Below the pieces are notes generated by a model. That model worked only from the letters and a program-made list of their open reading frames with translations, was not told the origin of the DNA and did no database searches. From Candidatus Shapirobacteria bacterium (GTDB lineage: Bacteria > Patescibacteriota > Microgenomatia > UBA12405): a stretch of 64,000 nt of DNA. Positions within the stretch are counted from its first letter, which is position 1. Each line of letters opens with the position of its first letter. Location of the stretch: positions 139,130 through 203,129 of the forward strand of contig JBAZTV010000002.1 in assembly GCA_041661765.1 (NCBI GenBank). Reading direction: 5' to 3'. The position numbers and the translations under genes were made by a program. Below, piece after piece: positions 17,433 through 23,412 of the stretch.

Positions 17433-18410
17433 TTAATCAGATTTATTCAATTGTTTATGCCAATTCCAAGCGCTTGAGATTATAGTTTCTAAATCAAAAT
17501 ATTTTGGTTCCCATTTTAAAATTTCTCTGGCTTTTTTAGAATCAGCAATTAACTCCGGAGGATCACCAGCTCGACGATCAACCTCTGTCACTTTAAAATC
17601 AACACCTGTTACCTTTTTAGCCACTTCAATAACTTGCTTAACCGAAAAACCACTTCCATTACCCAAATTAAAACTATCACTTTCACCACCATCTATTAAT
17701 TTTTTAAGAGCCAAAATATGAGCTTGGGCCAAATCAGTTACATGAACATAATCACGTATACATGTTCCATCTGTAGTCGGATAATCTGTTCCAAAAATTT
17801 TTATATCTTCTCTTTTTCCCAATGCTGCATCCAAAATTAACGGAATCAAATGAGATTCTGGGTTATGATTTTCACCAATTTCGCCATCAAGATCAGCTCC
17901 ACAAGCATTAAAATATCTTAAAGCCACATATTTCAGTCCATAAGCCACATCATAATCAGCCAAAATTTTTTCTACCATTAATTTAGCCTGTCCATAAGGA
18001 TTAATTGGAATTTGTAAATGCTTTTCATCTATTGGAGAATATTGTGGATTACCAAAAGTTGCCGCTGTTGAAGAAAAAATTATTTTTTTAACATCATTTT
18101 CCAACATTACTTGAAATAAATTCAAAGTATTAGCCACATTATTTTTATAGTATTTTTGTGGATCTTTTACTGATTCACCAACCTCAATAAAAGCCGCAAA
18201 ATGTAAAATTGCATCAATTGGATATTTTTTAAATACTCCTCTAATGTCTTCAATATTTCCTAAATCGCCTTGAAAAAAATCACCCCATTTCACCGCCTCT
18301 TTATGTCCTTTAATTAAACTGTCAAAAACCACCGTCGTATAACCCTGTTTGTTTAATTCTTTATTGATATGGGATCCAATATATCCCGCCCCACCTACAA
18401 TTAAAATCAT
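17433..18410 (-). CDS. galE: UDP-glucose 4-epimerase
   Basis: MILIVGGAGYIGSHINKEL, a YxxxK active site, and a length of 325 aa. Confidence 0.85.
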   Translation of the reverse strand: MILIVGGAGYIGSHINKELNKQGYTTVVFDSLIKGHKEAVKWGDFFQGDLGNIEDIRGVFKKYPIDAILHFAAFIEVGESVKDPQKYYKNNVANTLNLFQVMLENDVKKIIFSSTAATFGNPQYSPIDEKHLQIPINPYGQAKLMVEKILADYDVAYGLKYVALRYFNACGADLDGEIGENHNPESHLIPLILDAALGKREDIKIFGTDYPTTDGTCIRDYVHVTDLAQAHILALKKLIDGGESDSFNLGNGSGFSVKQVIEVAKKVTGVDFKVTEVDRRAGDPPELIADSKKAREILKWEPKYFDLETIISSAWNWHKQLNKSD

Positions 18411-18458
18411 AAATTTATTAATTTCTAATTATTAAATTTTATCACCTAAACAACGTTT

Positions 18459-18500
18459 TCCCCTCCTTTCGTCAAAGGAGGGGATTAAGGGGTGGATTTA
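18459..18500. repeat. GC-rich palindromic mini-element, intergenic copy A
   Basis: TCCCCTCCTTT-CGTC-AAAGGAGGGGA is a perfect 11-bp stem (18459-18484). The tail TTAAGGGGTGGATTTA follows and overlaps the metK stop codon. It belongs to the same family as the copies at 20905, 21518 and 22895. Confidence 0.6.
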
Positions 18501-19598
18501 AATTTTTTCCCATGGATACCCATCGTACCCAAAATGTCCATATCTAGCCGTCTTTTGATAAATAGGTCTTTTTAAATCTAATTCATCAATAATTCCTTTA
18601 ACCGACAAATCTAATAAACTCCACACAAAATTTTCAATTGTGGCCAAATCTTTCTTTTCAGTTCCAAAAGTTTCAATTGATTTACCAATTGGATCCCTCT
18701 GTCCAATCACATAGGCTAATTGCACCTCGCACCTATCCGCTAAACCAGCCGCCACTACATTTTTTGCCAAAAATCTAACCGCATAAGCCCCACTTCTATC
18801 TACTTTTGTAGGATCTTTTCCTGAAAAACAACCACCACCAATCCTTCCCATTCCACCATAAGTATCCACCACAATTTTTCGACCAGTCACTCCAGTATCA
18901 CTCGCTGGACCACCAATTTCCCATTGGCCAGTACCATTAAATATAAATTTATTAAAATTAATCTTTTCTAATTTATATTTTTCTAAAATCGGCAAAACAA
19001 CCAATTCGTATAATTTATTTTTTACAAAATCTTTATCCACTCTTAAATCAAATGGCTTAGCTAAAACAATCTTTTTCACCCCCATCACTTTTCCGTTTTC
19101 ATAAGCCACAACTACCTCTGCTTTTCCATCAGGCCTCAAAAAATTTAATTCACCAAATTGCAATTCATCCATCTTTCGGCAAAACTCATGTGATAAAACT
19201 ATTGGCATTGGCATTAATTGCGGAGTTTCATTACAAGCATATCCAAACATCATTCCCTGATCACCAGCTCCATCATTATCTGCTCCCAAGGCAATATCTT
19301 TTGATTGTTGATGAATTGCCACATCAAAAACAGCATTTTTATTAAAACAAAACTCTGCCTTGTTGTAGCCTAAATTTTCAATAACCTGCTGTGCTATTTT
19401 TTGATAATTCAATGCAAAATTACAAGTCACTTCCCCAGCCATCGTCACTTTATTAGTTGTTACTAAAGTCTCAACTGCCACTCTCGAATTTTTATCAAAA
19501 GTTAATGCGGTATCTAATACTGCATCAGAAATCTGGTCACAAATTTTATCGGGATGACCAGCACATACCGATTCAGAAACAAAAAGGGGATAGTTCAT
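18498..19598 (-). CDS. metK: S-adenosylmethionine synthetase
   Basis: The protein starts MNYPLFVSESVCAGHPDKICDQISDAVLD. A perfect AGGAGG RBS lies 6 nt upstream of the ATG at 19598. The ORF-track start at 19646 is an upstream extension. Confidence 0.9.
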   Translation of the reverse strand: MNYPLFVSESVCAGHPDKICDQISDAVLDTALTFDKNSRVAVETLVTTNKVTMAGEVTCNFALNYQKIAQQVIENLGYNKAEFCFNKNAVFDVAIHQQSKDIALGADNDGAGDQGMMFGYACNETPQLMPMPIVLSHEFCRKMDELQFGELNFLRPDGKAEVVVAYENGKVMGVKKIVLAKPFDLRVDKDFVKNKLYELVVLPILEKYKLEKINFNKFIFNGTGQWEIGGPASDTGVTGRKIVVDTYGGMGRIGGGCFSGKDPTKVDRSGAYAVRFLAKNVVAAGLADRCEVQLAYVIGQRDPIGKSIETFGTEKKDLATIENFVWSLLDLSVKGIIDELDLKRPIYQKTARYGHFGYDGYPWEKI

Positions 19599-19651
19599 AT
19601 TTTTCCTCCTGTTAATTAATAAAGAGGCTTGTCTTTCTACTTTCATAGAAA

Positions 19652-19697
19652 AAGCACCGCGAGTCCAAAATTTCAGACCTCGGTTGCTGTCCTGATT
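19652..19697 (-). terminator. possible intrinsic terminator of the upstream membrane-protein gene
   Basis: On the minus strand an imperfect stem ACCGAGGTC...GACTCGCGGT is followed by GCTTTTT. Confidence 0.25.
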
Positions 19698-19739
19698 TTT
19701 TTTAAATCAAAACTCCTGACAAAGCAAATTAATACTAAA

Positions 19740-20705
19740 CTATTCATTATGAACTTTCAACTTTCCTTTAGTTTCTTTATCAAAAAACAATAAAATTCCA
19801 CCAAATAAAGAATTAATCACTCCTAAAATCCCTAAAAAGGCTGACATTAATAAAATACTTTCACTTGAACTACTAAATTGAGAAAAGAAAAATAAATATA
19901 GCTGTTCTCTCGCTCCAAAACCTCCAATTGAAATTGGTAAAACTAAAATCATCGAGATTATTGGAATAAAAACAAAAACTGCAAAAAGACTCAAATTAAT
20001 ACCAAATTGCCACGCCACAAACCAAATTTGCAAAATATAAAATAATTCACTTAAAAACGACACAAAAAGACATTTTATTATCTGAATTTTATTTTTATCT
20101 TTAAATAATTCAAAAGCATCATCCAACCTATGTAATAAAGTAAATTTGGGTAGTAATTTAGATACATCAAAAAAATAAATAATAAAATAAACCACAAAAC
20201 AAGCCCCGTTTAAAATAATTAATAAATAAAAGATTGTTTCTGGAATAATTAATCCTTTATTTACACCAATAAATGCCGATATTAAGCCCAAAATCATAAA
20301 AATTGAAAATCCTATAAACCTATCCAAAACTACCGATCCTAATATTTTTGTTTTTGAAATTTTTGGATATTCACCATCAATTACAATCCATTTTGCCACT
20401 TCACCCACAACCGCCGTTGAAAAAAACAATGAATAAAAAGTGGCCAAAAAATTAGCCCGAGAAAAAGTCAAAAAAGTTTTTACCTCAATTTTAGGAAACA
20501 ATAACAAACTCCATCGAACAGAAATTAAAACTACTATTAAAAAACTAAAAATTATATTTACAAGAACAAACCAAAATGGAACATTTTTTACATCATCAAA
20601 GAGTTTAATAATATCAACTTTTCTAAATGCAAAATAAATTAAAACTACTGAAAAAAATAATCTAAATAATCTCGACTTAAAAATTTTTTTAAAAATTTCC
20701 AACAT
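19740..20705 (-). CDS. flippase-like / lysylphosphatidylglycerol-synthase-TM-like membrane protein (UPF0104-like)
   Basis: 321 aa with 7-8 TM helices and a basic N-terminus. It is transcribed divergently from the GT operon. Confidence 0.4.
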   Translation of the reverse strand: MLEIFKKIFKSRLFRLFFSVVLIYFAFRKVDIIKLFDDVKNVPFWFVLVNIIFSFLIVVLISVRWSLLLFPKIEVKTFLTFSRANFLATFYSLFFSTAVVGEVAKWIVIDGEYPKISKTKILGSVVLDRFIGFSIFMILGLISAFIGVNKGLIIPETIFYLLIILNGACFVVYFIIYFFDVSKLLPKFTLLHRLDDAFELFKDKNKIQIIKCLFVSFLSELFYILQIWFVAWQFGINLSLFAVFVFIPIISMILVLPISIGGFGAREQLYLFFFSQFSSSSESILLMSAFLGILGVINSLFGGILLFFDKETKGKLKVHNE

Positions 20706-20748
20706 AAACTAACTATTAGAATAACACGAAGTATAATTAAACAAATTT

Positions 20749-21996
20749 ATGAAAATACTATTAATAAGTCATATTTTTCCTCCCGCCATCGATGGCGGTT
20801 CAAAAGTCATTTATAAACTTGGCCAATATTTTGAATCCCAAAATCATCAAACTCTTTATTTAAGTTCCAATTGTTCCAGCACTGACGACTTCATCAAAAA
20901 AAGTCCTGCCCTGTCAAGGGAAGGATTTAGGAAGGGTTTTATAAAACTGCCCACATATCACCATCTTCGCCGACCCTTAAAATTTCTAAATTTATTTTTA
21001 AAACAAGATTTATTAAAAGTTTTTCAAAAAGGCCCGATTTTTAAAATTTTTCCGTTTCTAAAAGCCACTTATCAAATTTTAAAATTCAAACCCGATTTAA
21101 TTATCGCCGGTCCACTTCCAACAACTATTATTCTATATGCTGTTTTTTTCAAAAAAATAACTAATTCCAAACTTCTAATCAATGCTTCCTTCCACCCCAC
21201 CGACCAAGACTTTCAACAAAAACCACTAATTAATACCTTAAAAAAGGCAGATTTTTTGTGGACTCTTACTCAATCAGAAACTGATTATTTTACAAAAAAT
21301 TTTAATATCGACCCAAAAAAAATAATTCTCGCCGGCAACGGTGTCGATTATAATTTTTTAAAAAAATCAAAAATTCCCCGTCTTGTCTCGGCCAAAAGCC
21401 GATCCGCCTCTGGCGGAAAGGGAGGCTTAGGAAGCTTTAACATCTTATTCATCGGTTCTCTTGCCGCCCATAAACGCGTCGACATTTTAATTAAGTCTTT
21501 TTCAGATATTTTAGCGTCCCGCCCTGTCAAGGGAGGGATTGAGGGAGGGTTTAAACTTACTATCGCCGGCCAAAAAACCCTCTTCTATTCTCAAATCGAA
21601 AAACTAATCAATTCCCTTGACCCAAAATTAAAATCTAAAATCAATTTTATTTTTAATTTTAATCAAAAAGATTTGGCTAAAATAATTGATAATTGCTCTG
21701 TTTTAGTTTTACCCTCAGTTCAGGAAAGTTTTGGTTTAGTTATTGTCGAAGCCTGGGCTCGGCAAAAACCAGTAATTTGTGCCGATATTCCAGCATTAAA
21801 AGAATTAGTCCAAAATTCAAATGGGGGATTATTGTTTAAAACCAATGATCAATCAGATTTAACAAAAAAAATTCAAGAAATCATAGACAATCCAAAAAAA
21901 TCAGAACAAATGGGGAAAAATGGTTACAATTATGTTAAAAACAATTATACTTGGAATAATGTAGGAAATAAAATATGCCAAAAAATATTATGCTGA
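20749..21996 (+). CDS. glycosyltransferase family 4 carrying three in-frame mini-element insertions
   Basis: The N-terminus is MKILLISHIFPPAIDGGSKV and the C-terminal region is VLPSVQESFGLVIVEAWA...G. GC-rich inserts encode PALSREGFRKGFIKL, SAKSRSASGGKGGLGSF and ASRPVKGGIEGGFKL. Confidence 0.75.
   Translation: MKILLISHIFPPAIDGGSKVIYKLGQYFESQNHQTLYLSSNCSSTDDFIKKSPALSREGFRKGFIKLPTYHHLRRPLKFLNLFLKQDLLKVFQKGPIFKIFPFLKATYQILKFKPDLIIAGPLPTTIILYAVFFKKITNSKLLINASFHPTDQDFQQKPLINTLKKADFLWTLTQSETDYFTKNFNIDPKKIILAGNGVDYNFLKKSKIPRLVSAKSRSASGGKGGLGSFNILFIGSLAAHKRVDILIKSFSDILASRPVKGGIEGGFKLTIAGQKTLFYSQIEKLINSLDPKLKSKINFIFNFNQKDLAKIIDNCSVLVLPSVQESFGLVIVEAWARQKPVICADIPALKELVQNSNGGLLFKTNDQSDLTKKIQEIIDNPKKSEQMGKNGYNYVKNNYTWNNVGNKICQKILC
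20905..20941. repeat. palindromic mini-element copy B (intragenic, in-frame)
   Basis: CCTGCCCT-GTCA-AGGGAAGG hairpin with one mismatch, plus the tail ATTTAGGAAGGGTTTTA. Confidence 0.6.
21405..21441. repeat. related mini-element copy E (sub-family with CCGCC-TCT-GGCGG hairpin)
   Basis: CCGCCTCTGGCGG, then AAAGGGAGGCTTAGGAAGCTTTAA. The tail is homologous to the copy B tail. It encodes SASGGKGGLGSF. Confidence 0.45.
21518..21555. repeat. palindromic mini-element copy C (intragenic, in-frame)
   Basis: CCCGCCCT-GTCA-AGGGAGGG, plus the tail ATTGAGGGAGGGTTTAAA. Confidence 0.6.
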
Positions 21997-22433
21997 TAAT
22001 TACTCCTGTTTTAATAATAATTGCCGGAATTTTAATTTGGCGATTATTTTTTTATTTACCACCAGCTAACTCTATTAAGATCAAAATTGCCAACATTAAT
22101 TACAATATTGAATTAGCCACAACCATCGCCCAAAAAACAAAAGGGTTATCTGAACGAAATATTCTCTGTAAAAATTGCGGTATGCTTTTTACTTTTAGTT
22201 TTGAAACTAATTTGCCTTTTTGGATGAAAAACACTCTAATTCCTCTCGATATGATTTGGCTCGATAAAAATGGAAAAGTAGTTGATATTCAAACCGCCGT
22301 TGAAATTAATTCAAATAAAATTTACCAAAACCAAATTCCCGCCCAATATGTCCTTGAACTAAATGCTAATGATTCACAAAAAATAGGCCTAAAAATAGGT
22401 GACATTATTGATCTTTCAAAGATAAATGACTAA
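21975..22433 (+). CDS. DUF192-domain protein
   Basis: GLSERNILCKNCGMLFTFSFETNLPFWMKNTLIPLDMIWLDKNGKVV matches the DUF192/COG1430 core. There is an N-terminal TM anchor. Confidence 0.55.
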   Translation: MPKNIMLIITPVLIIIAGILIWRLFFYLPPANSIKIKIANINYNIELATTIAQKTKGLSERNILCKNCGMLFTFSFETNLPFWMKNTLIPLDMIWLDKNGKVVDIQTAVEINSNKIYQNQIPAQYVLELNANDSQKIGLKIGDIIDLSKIND

Positions 22434-23412
22434 TTTTTCTATTATTATTCCAAATTACAATGGTGCTTCATTTTTAACTAACTGTCTTAATTCTTTAAAA
22501 CAAGCAATAGATAATTGTCCTAATTCTGAATTCGAAATAATTCTAATCGATAACAACTCAAAAGATGATAGCCTTAAAATTTTTGAAATTATAATTCCTA
22601 AAAATTTTAATTATCGAATATTACTAAACTCAAAAAATTATGGATTCGCCAGTGCTGTTAATCAAGGAATTGAAAAAGCCAAATATGAATATGTAGTCTT
22701 ATTAAATAATGACCTCACCATGGAACCAAATTGGTTTCAGTTAATTTCTAAAACAATTAAAAAAAATAAAAATCCAAAAATCGCCACATTTTTCGGTACT
22801 GTTCTAAATAAAGAAGGCACAAAATTTGAATCCCAAGGTCTAAAATTTTTTTATTCCGGCAAATGTCAAAACATTTCCAACAGGGACAAATTCACCCCCT
22901 CCTTGTCAAAGGAGGGGGTTGGGGGTGGATTAGTTTGGGGTGCTTCCGCTGCTTTTATTGTCTACAATAAAAAAATATTAAAACAAATTGGTCTTTTTGA
23001 TTCTGATTTTTTTGCTTATTTGGAAGATGTCGATTTATCCCTCCGTCTTCATAATTTAAATTATCAAACTTTTTATATTCCCAAAGCTATTTCTTATCAC
23101 TTCGGTGGTGGCACCAGTAAAACTATGAAGAATATTCGCAGTCGATTATCCTATCGAAATTGGTTCTTCATAATTATAAAGAACTATTCTTCAAAAGAAT
23201 TTTTTACCAATTTTTCAAATATTTTAATTGAAAGATGTCACAACTTATCATATTTCTTTAAAGAAACCATTTCTGTTTATAAATGGAAATCTATTATAAT
23301 TTTTCCGTTCGATTTTATAAAAACATCTCTTGAAATTTTCATTTTACTCCCCAAAATATTAAAAAAACGAAAAACAATTCAAAAATTGATAAAATTAAAC
23401 AACTTAATATGA
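22426..23412 (+). CDS. glycosyltransferase family 2
   Basis: MTNFSIIIPNYNGASFLTNCLNSL...ILIDNNSKDDS...NNDL is a GT-A fold DxD region. The gene also carries an in-frame mini-element (PSLSKEGVGGGLVW). Confidence 0.75.
   Translation: MTNFSIIIPNYNGASFLTNCLNSLKQAIDNCPNSEFEIILIDNNSKDDSLKIFEIIIPKNFNYRILLNSKNYGFASAVNQGIEKAKYEYVVLLNNDLTMEPNWFQLISKTIKKNKNPKIATFFGTVLNKEGTKFESQGLKFFYSGKCQNISNRDKFTPSLSKEGVGGGLVWGASAAFIVYNKKILKQIGLFDSDFFAYLEDVDLSLRLHNLNYQTFYIPKAISYHFGGGTSKTMKNIRSRLSYRNWFFIIIKNYSSKEFFTNFSNILIERCHNLSYFFKETISVYKWKSIIIFPFDFIKTSLEIFILLPKILKKRKTIQKLIKLNNLI
22895..22936. repeat. palindromic mini-element copy D (intragenic, in-frame)
   Basis: CCCCCTCCTT-GTCA-AAGGAGGGGG is a perfect 10-bp stem. 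The tail is TTGGGGGTGGATTAGTTT. Compare copy A, whose tail is TTAAGGGGTGGATTTA. Confidence 0.65.

Follow-up and report, generated by a model that had tools for sequence, protein, structure and literature searches.

The repeats of the intrastrand triplex class, known as BoxC, PIT or TMECO and built on the class II purine motif (Holder et al., 2015, PMC4666352; Hoyne and Maher, 2000, 2002, cited there), are the closest described counterparts of a family of short G/C-rich elements that we report here from a 64-kb stretch of a Candidatus Shapirobacteria genome (contig JBAZTV010000002.1; this whole stretch of 64,000 nucleotides is called the window below) and from other members of the candidate phyla radiation (CPR, or Patescibacteria). 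The TMECO consensus, 5'-CCCTCNCCC N3-6 GGGNGAGGG N3 GGGNGAGGG, has 9-nt stems and a second loop of either TTA (type A) or CCG (type B), and the commonest type in Escherichia coli carries one G·A mismatch, CCCTCGCCCC/GGGGAGAGGG (PMC4666352). Single-stranded oligonucleotides of the E. coli TMECO element form a very stable triplex by circular dichroism (CD) and nuclear magnetic resonance (NMR); PIT elements are blocks to DNA polymerase in vitro, show neither promoter nor terminator activity, and lack a linked transposase; and E. coli K-12 holds 23 copies, 'always located intergenically', with motif-bearing loci more rearranged among E. coli strains than controls (PMC4666352). The window, at about 30% G+C, contains four G/C-rich modules of ~40 nt, all on the + strand and spanning 4.5 kb (18459-22933), and three of them lie in frame within glycosyltransferase genes. 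We consider it likely that these modules are copies of a dispersed ~40-nt intrastrand triplex motif repeat of the BoxC/PIT/TMECO type (class II purine motif) that is spreading in CPR genomes, including into open reading frames (ORFs).

The CPR element shares with BoxC/PIT/TMECO the three-arm architecture, the arm lengths, the triplet code, a frequent central G·A mismatch, and a common TTA second loop, and both are repeats of ~35-40 nt that are multi-copy, occur on both strands, have no linked transposase, and have locally variable DNA nearby. It differs in its arm sequences, its conserved GTCA first loop, and its AT-rich CPR hosts, and, whereas TMECO copies are intergenic, about half of the CPR copies stand in frame in ORFs (3/4 in the window; 30/63 among related copies). 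The arms of all four window copies depart from the TMECO consensus. A covariance model trained on 58 related CPR copies finds the E. coli K-12 BoxC copies by hrpB/mrcB and tauD/hemB in the correct register but only weakly (5-13 bits), which suggests that the class is the same and the sequence family a different one. Another parallel is found in the G-quadruplex/C-tract repeats of Methanomicrobiaceae, whose single-stranded oligonucleotides switch in vitro between a hairpin/antiparallel triplex and a G-quadruplex (PMC8044849). These repeats are like the CPR element in that their G-runs adjoin a complementary C-tract, they are multi-copy, and they show no strand bias relative to genes, and unlike it in that the C-tract lies 3' of the G-runs, the hosts are archaeal, and all copies are intergenic, with none inside genes (PMC8044849).

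All four modules that a preliminary description of this DNA had reported, at 18459, 20905, 21518, and 22895 (copies 1 to 4 below), are present, with limits that we re-place to 18459-18500, 20901-20940, 21514-21553, and 22893-22933. A pattern spanning the loop, the G-arm, and the tail has 4 matches in the window against none in 100 dinucleotide shuffles, and the four copies are recovered by an nhmmer profile and by the covariance model at E = 1e-16 to 7e-8, neither of which finds a further copy in the 64 kb; a chance origin of the window copies can be excluded. As single-stranded DNA the stems have predicted folding energies of -6.5 to -12.8 kcal/mol, with the predicted hairpin of copy 1 at -11.6 kcal/mol (z = -3.6) and that of copy 4 at -12.8 kcal/mol (z = -3.8). 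The stems of these two copies are perfect over 11 bp, and those of copies 2 and 3 comprise 4+4 bp with one central mismatch. Identical sequence is present in three independent assemblies (ENA, Logan), so an assembly artefact is unlikely.

The modules had been described as a palindrome followed by a G-rich tail, an anatomy that the comparison of related copies leads us to revise: aligned copies indicate that the tail forms a third arm, which mirrors the purine arm of the stem and covaries with the stem. Each copy consists of a pyrimidine arm of 9-10 nt, a GTCA loop, a complementary purine arm, a linker of 2-5 nt, and a mirror purine arm with TTT at its end, and the CPR consensus of the first two arms is YCCCYNCCYT-GTCA-ARGGNRGGG. 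The first loop, GTCA, spans 4 nt in the window copies (6 nt in copy 1) and the second 2-5 nt; in related copies the second loop is mostly 3 nt long and often TTA, and in some relatives it contains a nested hairpin. The 58-copy alignment, the 63-copy classification, and the 127 distinct matches discussed below were all drawn from matches listed by one pattern with a GTCAA loop. In the 58-copy alignment, 93.8% of the cells of the 9-bp stem are paired, and compensatory changes occur in 4/9 stem pairs (55 cells), a level reached by 0/500 shuffles, with slid registers clearly worse. The central stem position is unpaired (G·A or A·A) in 29/57 copies.

Where the purine arms are asymmetric, the relation between them can be read directly: the mirror register is the better one in 66 cases and the direct-repeat register in 1, with 39 ties, as in the mirrored arms AAAGGAGGGG...GGGGTGGATTT (copy 1) and AGGGGAGGA...AGGAGGGGT. 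The tail as a direct repeat of the G-arm is thereby out. Scored against its own arm 1, arm 2 reaches a mirror score of 8.82/9, compared with 7.67 ± 0.07 for permuted partners. An A in arm 1 goes with an A or a T in arm 2, and a G in arm 1 with a G in arm 2, and a T 3' of arm 2 is aligned to the closing T-A pair in 103/107 copies. The triplets (stem pair, then third-arm base) were counted as follows.

C-G•G: 605
T-A•T: 123
T-A•A: 79
T·G•G: 46
G·A•A: 27

Extra arm variants recovered solely by the covariance model all follow the mirror rule (for example, CCCTTGCCCT/AGGGAAAGGG/GGGTTAGGG), and coordinated differences in all three arms are seen between copies at the same or homologous gene positions, as in locus L118 compared with L121 and in the RadA copies of L037 and L041. 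We regard this three-arm covariation as comparative evidence that a triplex-compatible geometry is under selection. The triplex fold of the CPR element itself is one that we infer from the three-way covariation, with the in vitro proof coming from the E. coli and archaeal relatives. A G-quadruplex as the sole structure is rejected, as it gives no reason for the mirrored A and T positions; it may still be a competing fold.

Genome pairs with an element at the same or a homologous gene site but of another arm subfamily (L037/L041, in the RadA-like gene; L118/L121; L024/L113) are an observation in their own right. One such contrast is CCCCTCCTT/AAGGAGGGG/GGGGTGGA vs CCCTCCCTT/AGGGGAGGG/GGGAGGGG, and these paired sites reflect either repeated insertion at the same site or coordinated evolution of the three arms in place.

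The copies and the genes around them are arranged in the window as follows.

18459..18500, + strand: copy 1, with C-arm 18460-18469 CCCCTCCTTT, loop 18470-18473, G-arm1 18474-18483 AAAGGAGGGG, linker ATTAA 18484-18488, and mirror G-arm2 18489-18499 GGGGTGGATTT; covariance model E = 7e-8
18498..19646, - strand: metK (S-adenosylmethionine synthetase), its last codon and stop codon supplied by copy 1
20749..21996, + strand: family 4 glycosyltransferase (GT4) gene, 415 aa, from ORF and Pfam; hosts copies 2 and 3 and the degenerate copy
20901..20940, + strand: copy 2, in frame in GT4 as peptide SPALSREGFRKGF, with C-arm 20904-20912 TCCTGCCCT, loop GTCA 20913-20916, G-arm1 20917-20925 AGGGAAGGA, linker TTT 20926-20928, and mirror G-arm2 20929-20937 AGGAAGGGT, then TTT; covariance model E = 1e-16
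21374..21439, + strand: putative degenerate fifth copy, in frame in GT4 as peptide ..IPRLVSAKSRSASGGKGGLGSF, with C-arm-like TTCCCCGTCTT 21374-21384, predicted nested small hairpins TCGGCcaaaaGCCGA 21388-21402 and TCCGCCtctGGCGGA 21403-21417 (+ strand), G-arm1-like AAGGGAGG 21418-21425, linker CTTA, and G-arm2-like GGAAGCTTT 21430-21438
21514..21553, + strand: copy 3, in frame in GT4 as peptide SRPVKGGIEGGF, with C-arm 21517-21525 TCCCGCCCT, loop GTCA 21526-21529, G-arm1 21530-21538 AGGGAGGGA, linker TTG 21539-21541, and mirror G-arm2 21542-21550 AGGGAGGGT, then TT; covariance model E = 1.7e-16
22426..23412, + strand: family 2 glycosyltransferase (GT2) gene, 328 aa, from ORF and Pfam; hosts copy 4
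22893..22933, + strand: copy 4, in frame in GT2 as peptide PSLSKEGVGGGL, with C-arm 22895-22904 CCCCCTCCTT, loop GTCA 22905-22908, G-arm1 22909-22918 AAGGAGGGGG, linker TT 22919-22920, and mirror G-arm2 22921-22931 GGGGGTGGATT; covariance model E = 1e-13

The neighbours of copy 1 are galE and metK, both encoded on the - strand, and the final TTA of the copy (18498-18500) is the metK stop codon. The segment at 21374-21439 scores below the threshold of the covariance model, and its assignment as a degenerate copy would rest on the alignment of orthologues and on the predicted fold. For all 4-5 window copies the G-rich strand is the + strand; their surroundings are a polysaccharide gene cluster, and the other ~59 kb of the window are without a copy. 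This clustering may reflect a tolerance of glycosyltransferase loops, local spread, or recombination. As first described, three copies keep the reading frame of the host gene, and the peptides quoted for them are exact. Copies 2 and 4 are read in the same frame (..LS[RK]EG..) and copy 3 in another (..PVKGG..). The surface-loop position proposed for these inserts can be followed for GT4 only, where an AlphaFold model gives the insert regions (residues 43-61, 208-227, and 261-265) as coil with pLDDT < 50; the GT4 inserts would thus sit in loops that are predicted to be disordered.

Comparison with orthologues brings out empty, filled, and decayed sites. The window GT4 has hundreds of orthologues of 386-465 aa, whose alignment contains four hypervariable hot spots where the same few G/C-rich-looking peptides come and go; one of these peptides, FPSFRQRRGLRGGF, corresponds to window copy 1 translated in the third sense frame. 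We aligned four orthologous Shapirobacteria loci (L122-L125) to the window at the DNA level. L122 has 0 intact copies in the whole syntenic region, and the orthologous cluster of L124 has at least 6. The galE-metK spacer of L122 is a clean empty site, ~51 nt shorter, and MetK ends ..WEKLV* there and ..WEKI* in the window, where copy 1 provides the stop codon. Conversely, at a GT4 site with no element in the window, L124 shows a clean in-frame insertion of 54 nt, and the 43-nt core of this insertion is 100% identical to copy 1. At GT4 site 1 (copy 2), 37/37 nucleotides are identical in the window, L123, and L124, with 150-nt flanks that are 76-91% identical, and L122 and L125 have unrelated AT-rich sequence. 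Copy 3 is absent from its site in L122, is replaced by 7-mer repeats in L123 and L125, and is matched in L124 by a copy with a nested linker hairpin. The segment of the putative fifth copy is an insertion relative to L122 and L123, and a canonical copy occupies its site in L124. Copy 4 in GT2 is kept in L123 and L124; in L125 its site is occupied by (ATCTACC)x4; and in L122 (~7045-7085) an equal-length decayed copy, CCCCCTCTTTATCAAAAGAGAATGCAGGAGGTGGATT, has about a dozen mainly G/C-to-A/T substitutions and a largely lost stem, with the peptide mostly retained (FTPSLSKENAGGGLVWG). This decay illustrates how quickly G/C-rich DNA wears away in this lineage if it is not maintained. Empty and filled orthologous sites, together with identical copies at unrelated sites, make it evident at the level of aligned loci that the repeat moves to new sites within and between CPR genomes.

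Other small repeats occur at the same places. Heptanucleotide tandem repeats lie in the glycosyltransferase hot spots of L125, as (ATCTACC)x4.1 with 100% identity in GT2 (L125:7103-7131) and as (ATCTACA)x3.7 in GT4 (L125:5168-5193); heptamer tracts are also found at GT4 site 4 in L123 and L125, and the peptides TIYNLR and TIYDLR recur at the hot spots of many orthologues. Since 7 nt is no multiple of 3, these tracts are candidates for slipped-strand on/off switching of CPR glycan genes. Small G/C-rich hairpins nested in element loops, such as TCGGCcaaaaGCCGA and TCCGCCtctGGCGGA in the window (21388-21417) and CCCCGCagcaGCGGGG and TGTCTCGCaacaGCGAGACA in L124 GT4 site 4 and L125 GT4 site 3, may be other mini-repeat families or long-loop variants. 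The galE-metK spacer of L123 (~470-495) carries at the place of copy 1 an unrelated perfect 24-nt palindrome, AGAGACGTTCTGCAGAACGTCTCT.

Beyond these loci, at least 114 pattern-matching stretches occur in bacterial contigs representing one genome per species. The upstream arm is complementary to the G-arm at 7/9 bases or more in 97/127 distinct matches, and, as the pattern never asked for this C-arm, the matches are real hairpins. Among the matches listed, several copies per metagenome-assembled genome (MAG) are found under the labels Shapirobacteria, Microgenomates, 'Parcubacteria', Moraniibacteria, Peribacteria, Gracilibacteria, and unclassified Patescibacteria. The covariance model counts 106 copies over 430 kb of low-GC loci, where single MAGs carry several at unrelated loci; this figure is biased by the preselection of these loci for a match. 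Spread across classes, as the label 'Candidatus Parcubacteria OH_SDB_33' would imply, is uncertain: the GT4 orthologue under that label is 62% identical to the window's, and the label or the cluster may not mark a distant lineage. CPR-type elements are also present in bins labelled 'uncultured Gammaproteobacteria' of 26-44% GC (L115, L028, L036, L041, L049, L076, L077, L084, L090, L092-L094, L100, L116, L118, and L121); L115 has the Shapirobacteria-type GT4 motif FNILFIGSLAAHKRV adjoining the element, and the labels are probably wrong.

Of the 63 hairpin-bearing low-GC copies, 30 are intragenic (17 sense, 13 antisense), each with 40 codons or more to either ORF end, and 33 lie at ORF ends or between genes. 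Twelve of the 13 antisense copies use one shared frame, another antisense frame being closed because the loop yields TGA on that strand; over the window, the orthologues, and related CPR copies, three sense frames and one antisense frame are in use. Pfam confirms as host genes those for the NAD-dependent DNA ligase LigA (two copies), a class I aminoacyl-tRNA synthetase, a MiaB-type radical SAM enzyme, MiaA, MoeA, a RadA-like ATPase, a thioredoxin-reductase-like flavoprotein, a class II ribonucleotide reductase (RNR), DnaX, and TsaD. With multiple frames, both strands, and unrelated hosts in use, selection appears to act on the nucleotides rather than on the peptide. A mobile nucleotide repeat that enters ORFs in frame, as the preliminary description had proposed, is thus borne out by empty, filled, and decayed sites, by multiple frames, and by unrelated host genes. 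That description had also named two findings that would speak for ordinary coding sequence instead, namely orthologues with the same peptides lacking the palindrome, and a motif confined to one operon. Neither turned out to hold: many orthologues lack the segments altogether and several frames are read, and the motif recurs in related CPR MAGs, its own genome having been covered for 64 kb.

A possible course of events can be sketched for a spreading triplex motif repeat. When the G-rich strand is single, its first two arms would pair as a hairpin, and the third arm would lie antiparallel in the hairpin's major groove, forming G•G-C, A•A-T, and T•A-T triplets by reverse-Hoogsteen pairing; a G-quadruplex from the four G-runs would compete with this fold. 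The fold would arise when the strand is exposed in replication, repair, or transfer, and the fold itself may be what is recognised or selected. Given small genomes with short intergenic spacers, many insertions would be expected in genes, and the survivors would be in-frame copies in tolerant loops, translated as loop inserts rich in Gly, Pro, Arg, and Ser. Our best guess for the copying step is an action in trans on the folded single strand at replication or repair, whether by some enzyme or by gene conversion between copies. As a side effect, the fold may stall polymerases and thereby raise local rates of indels and rearrangements, and such stalling would be in keeping with how extremely these very sites vary among orthologues.

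Several other families of short repeats invite comparison. The Rickettsia palindromic elements (RPEs), to which the modules had been likened, are also short structured repeats in the small genome of an obligately host-dependent bacterium, and they too lie in frame in many unrelated, often essential genes and are read through as an extra peptide. At ~150 bp and without a mirror third arm they are unlike the CPR element, and a sequence relationship is not expected; the likeness holds as an analogy of in-frame lifestyle, whereas the closest family and the class are those of BoxC/PIT/TMECO, and membership in the RPEs is rejected on length (~40 nt vs ~150 bp) and on the number of frames used. [quoted passage not shown] The CPR element differs from them in that no 5' GTAG or GTGG precedes the stem in any of the four copies, and no clear target-site duplication was detected at two clean junctions blurred by divergence; a REP/RAYT system is rejected for its missing GTAG head and the many intragenic copies, a RAYT gene not having been searched for. 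The GC clusters of yeast mitochondria are G/C-rich palindromic mini-elements in a very AT-rich genome, some of them in frame in var1, and are unlike the CPR element in sequence, in having no third mirror arm, and in their organelle host. As in-frame intragenic repeats, a 2024 review of MITEs names RPEs, intragenic enterobacterial repetitive intergenic consensus (ERIC) sequences, QMITE1, and Anabaena MITEs, and it mentions neither Patescibacteria nor triplex motifs. Full-text literature gave nothing relevant on CPR or Patescibacteria in combination with repeats, palindromic elements, G-quadruplex, or triplex. Cargo of phages or plasmids was considered as well and set aside: four pattern matches in viral contigs lack the C-arm and look like chance, and BLAST gave no match in phages or plasmids.

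The same observations could be read as the work of the host, with the elements kept as hot spots where folded DNA pauses replication or attracts repair and so diversifies the loops of surface-glycan enzymes (the 'adaptive instability' of Holder et al.). The 4-5 copies do cluster in 4.5 kb of a polysaccharide cluster, the rest of the 64 kb having none; hypervariability among orthologues falls on the same four GT4 sites, where other subfamilies of the element, nested hairpins, and tandem 7-mers are also found; conservation of the copy at GT4 site 1 exceeds that of the coding DNA on its flanks (37/37 against about 79% identity); and the greater rearrangement of motif-bearing loci in E. coli (PMC4666352) points the same way. 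However, copies are also found in LigA, RNR, RadA, DnaX, and TsaD, where variation is of no obvious use, the GT2 copy of L122 has been free to decay, insert-tolerant loops would appear hypervariable regardless, and a benefit to the host has not been demonstrated in any organism; we hold this account to be quite improbable. It is harder still to see the element as acting in mRNA, where a hairpin or RNA G-quadruplex might slow ribosomes, guide RNase cleavage, or tune operon expression. The predicted hairpins are stable and the G-rich strand is the sense strand in all three intragenic window copies, but across CPR loci the 17 sense and 13 antisense intragenic copies are nearly equal in number, and a mirror-repeat purine third strand corresponds to no known RNA fold, purine-motif triplexes being reported not to form in RNA (cited in PMC4666352). 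Nor is there an Rfam match or a promoter- or terminator-like site at the copies: a search of Rfam 15 at the gathering threshold gave only tRNA-Val, an E-value search of 18300-23200 gave one chance-level match, and a terminator or promoter was rejected for want of a consensus site at any copy, an opposite-strand TTGACA having no properly spaced -10 partner. The E. coli PIT elements, which as said have neither activity (PMC4666352), agree with this, and a role in mRNA has in our view a slim prospect at best. Ordinary lineage-specific coding sequence with Gly-rich loops, or an artefact of assembly, deserves next to no weight: the L122 GT2 peptide is largely kept (FTPSLSKENAGGGLVWG) though its palindrome has decayed, but the same nucleotides turn up in different frames and on either strand, copy 1 of the window is intergenic, the segments are missing from many orthologues, and the three ENA/Logan assemblies agree. 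An explanation at the level of the peptide or coding sequence is refuted by these data on frame, strand, and presence or absence.

A number of points weigh against the reading that we prefer, that of a triplex motif repeat spreading in CPR genomes. The E. coli triplex has not been seen in duplex DNA or in dimethyl sulfate (DMS) footprints in vivo (PMC4666352). At the two clean empty/filled junctions there is no target site or clear target-site duplication, the compared genomes being diverged and the junctions blurred, and no mobilising gene was found, a RAYT or IS200-type gene not having been searched for. The 'empty' alleles at GT4 site 1 and at the GT2 site hold other sequence of similar length, which hints at replacement or gene conversion over cut-and-paste. 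All window copies fall within one 4.5-kb stretch of the 64 kb of genome covered. The search pattern fixed the GTCAA loop and held arm 2 to purines, or to G or T, at most positions, so that a lack of C at those positions follows from the pattern, and evidence on arm 2 comes from the covariation alone; and the copies share descent, so shuffle statistics overstate their independence. A bolder version of the preferred reading would have an actively spreading CPR family of triplex-folding single-stranded DNA, in which near-identical masters of 37-43 nt invade genomes and essential genes, the triplex itself, and more than a hairpin alone, is recognised and selected in vivo, as the three-way covariation (C-G•G to T-A•A/T) would show, and hypervariation of protein loops is driven by the elements; this we think rather unlikely. 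If true, part of the unexplained protein insertions of CPR would be accounted for, and selection of the triplex in vivo would be the first comparative evidence for a purine-motif DNA triplex as a biologically selected structure.

The triplex class and its in vitro structure are already known, and in the literature consulted published repeats of the BoxC/PIT/TMECO class are described as intergenic only (PMC4666352). The range of CPR hosts, the sequence family with its GTCA loop, the in-frame life inside genes (essential ones included), and the evidence from three-arm covariation appear to be new within the literature searched. BoxC/PIT-type repeats have been known for ~30 years without a function or a copying mechanism, and the CPR copies offer a natural experiment, with the triplex architecture placed inside genes of a tiny AT-rich genome where unmaintained G/C-rich sequence decays quickly, and with many diverged subfamilies that make three-arm covariation accessible. 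They would also provide a second, phylogenetically remote case, similar to that of the RPEs, of selfish DNA in protein-coding genes. For the annotation of CPR genomes, they point to a source of odd inserts rich in Gly, Pro, and Arg and of length variation that can mislead alignments, the prediction of structures, and annotation.

A high-GC sister family, (T)ACCCCCCTGTCAAGGGGGGGTAGGGGGGGTTGGTTTT, often lies 3' of a conserved CGCCTTTTT(A/C)AT flank. Nitrospinota-labelled and unclassified MAGs of ~60-68% GC carry it in multiple copies (loci of the family: L009, L014, L026, L032, L043, L046, L050, L054, L056, L065, L073, L074, L082, L085, L091, L107-L109, L111, and L120), and single matches occur in several Proteobacteria. 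Elsewhere in the window, positions 8974-9062 consist of a 27-nt unit repeated in tandem 3.3 times with 93% identity (GAAGAAGATGAACTAGATGAATTATTT), which is codon-phased and would be acidic if translated.

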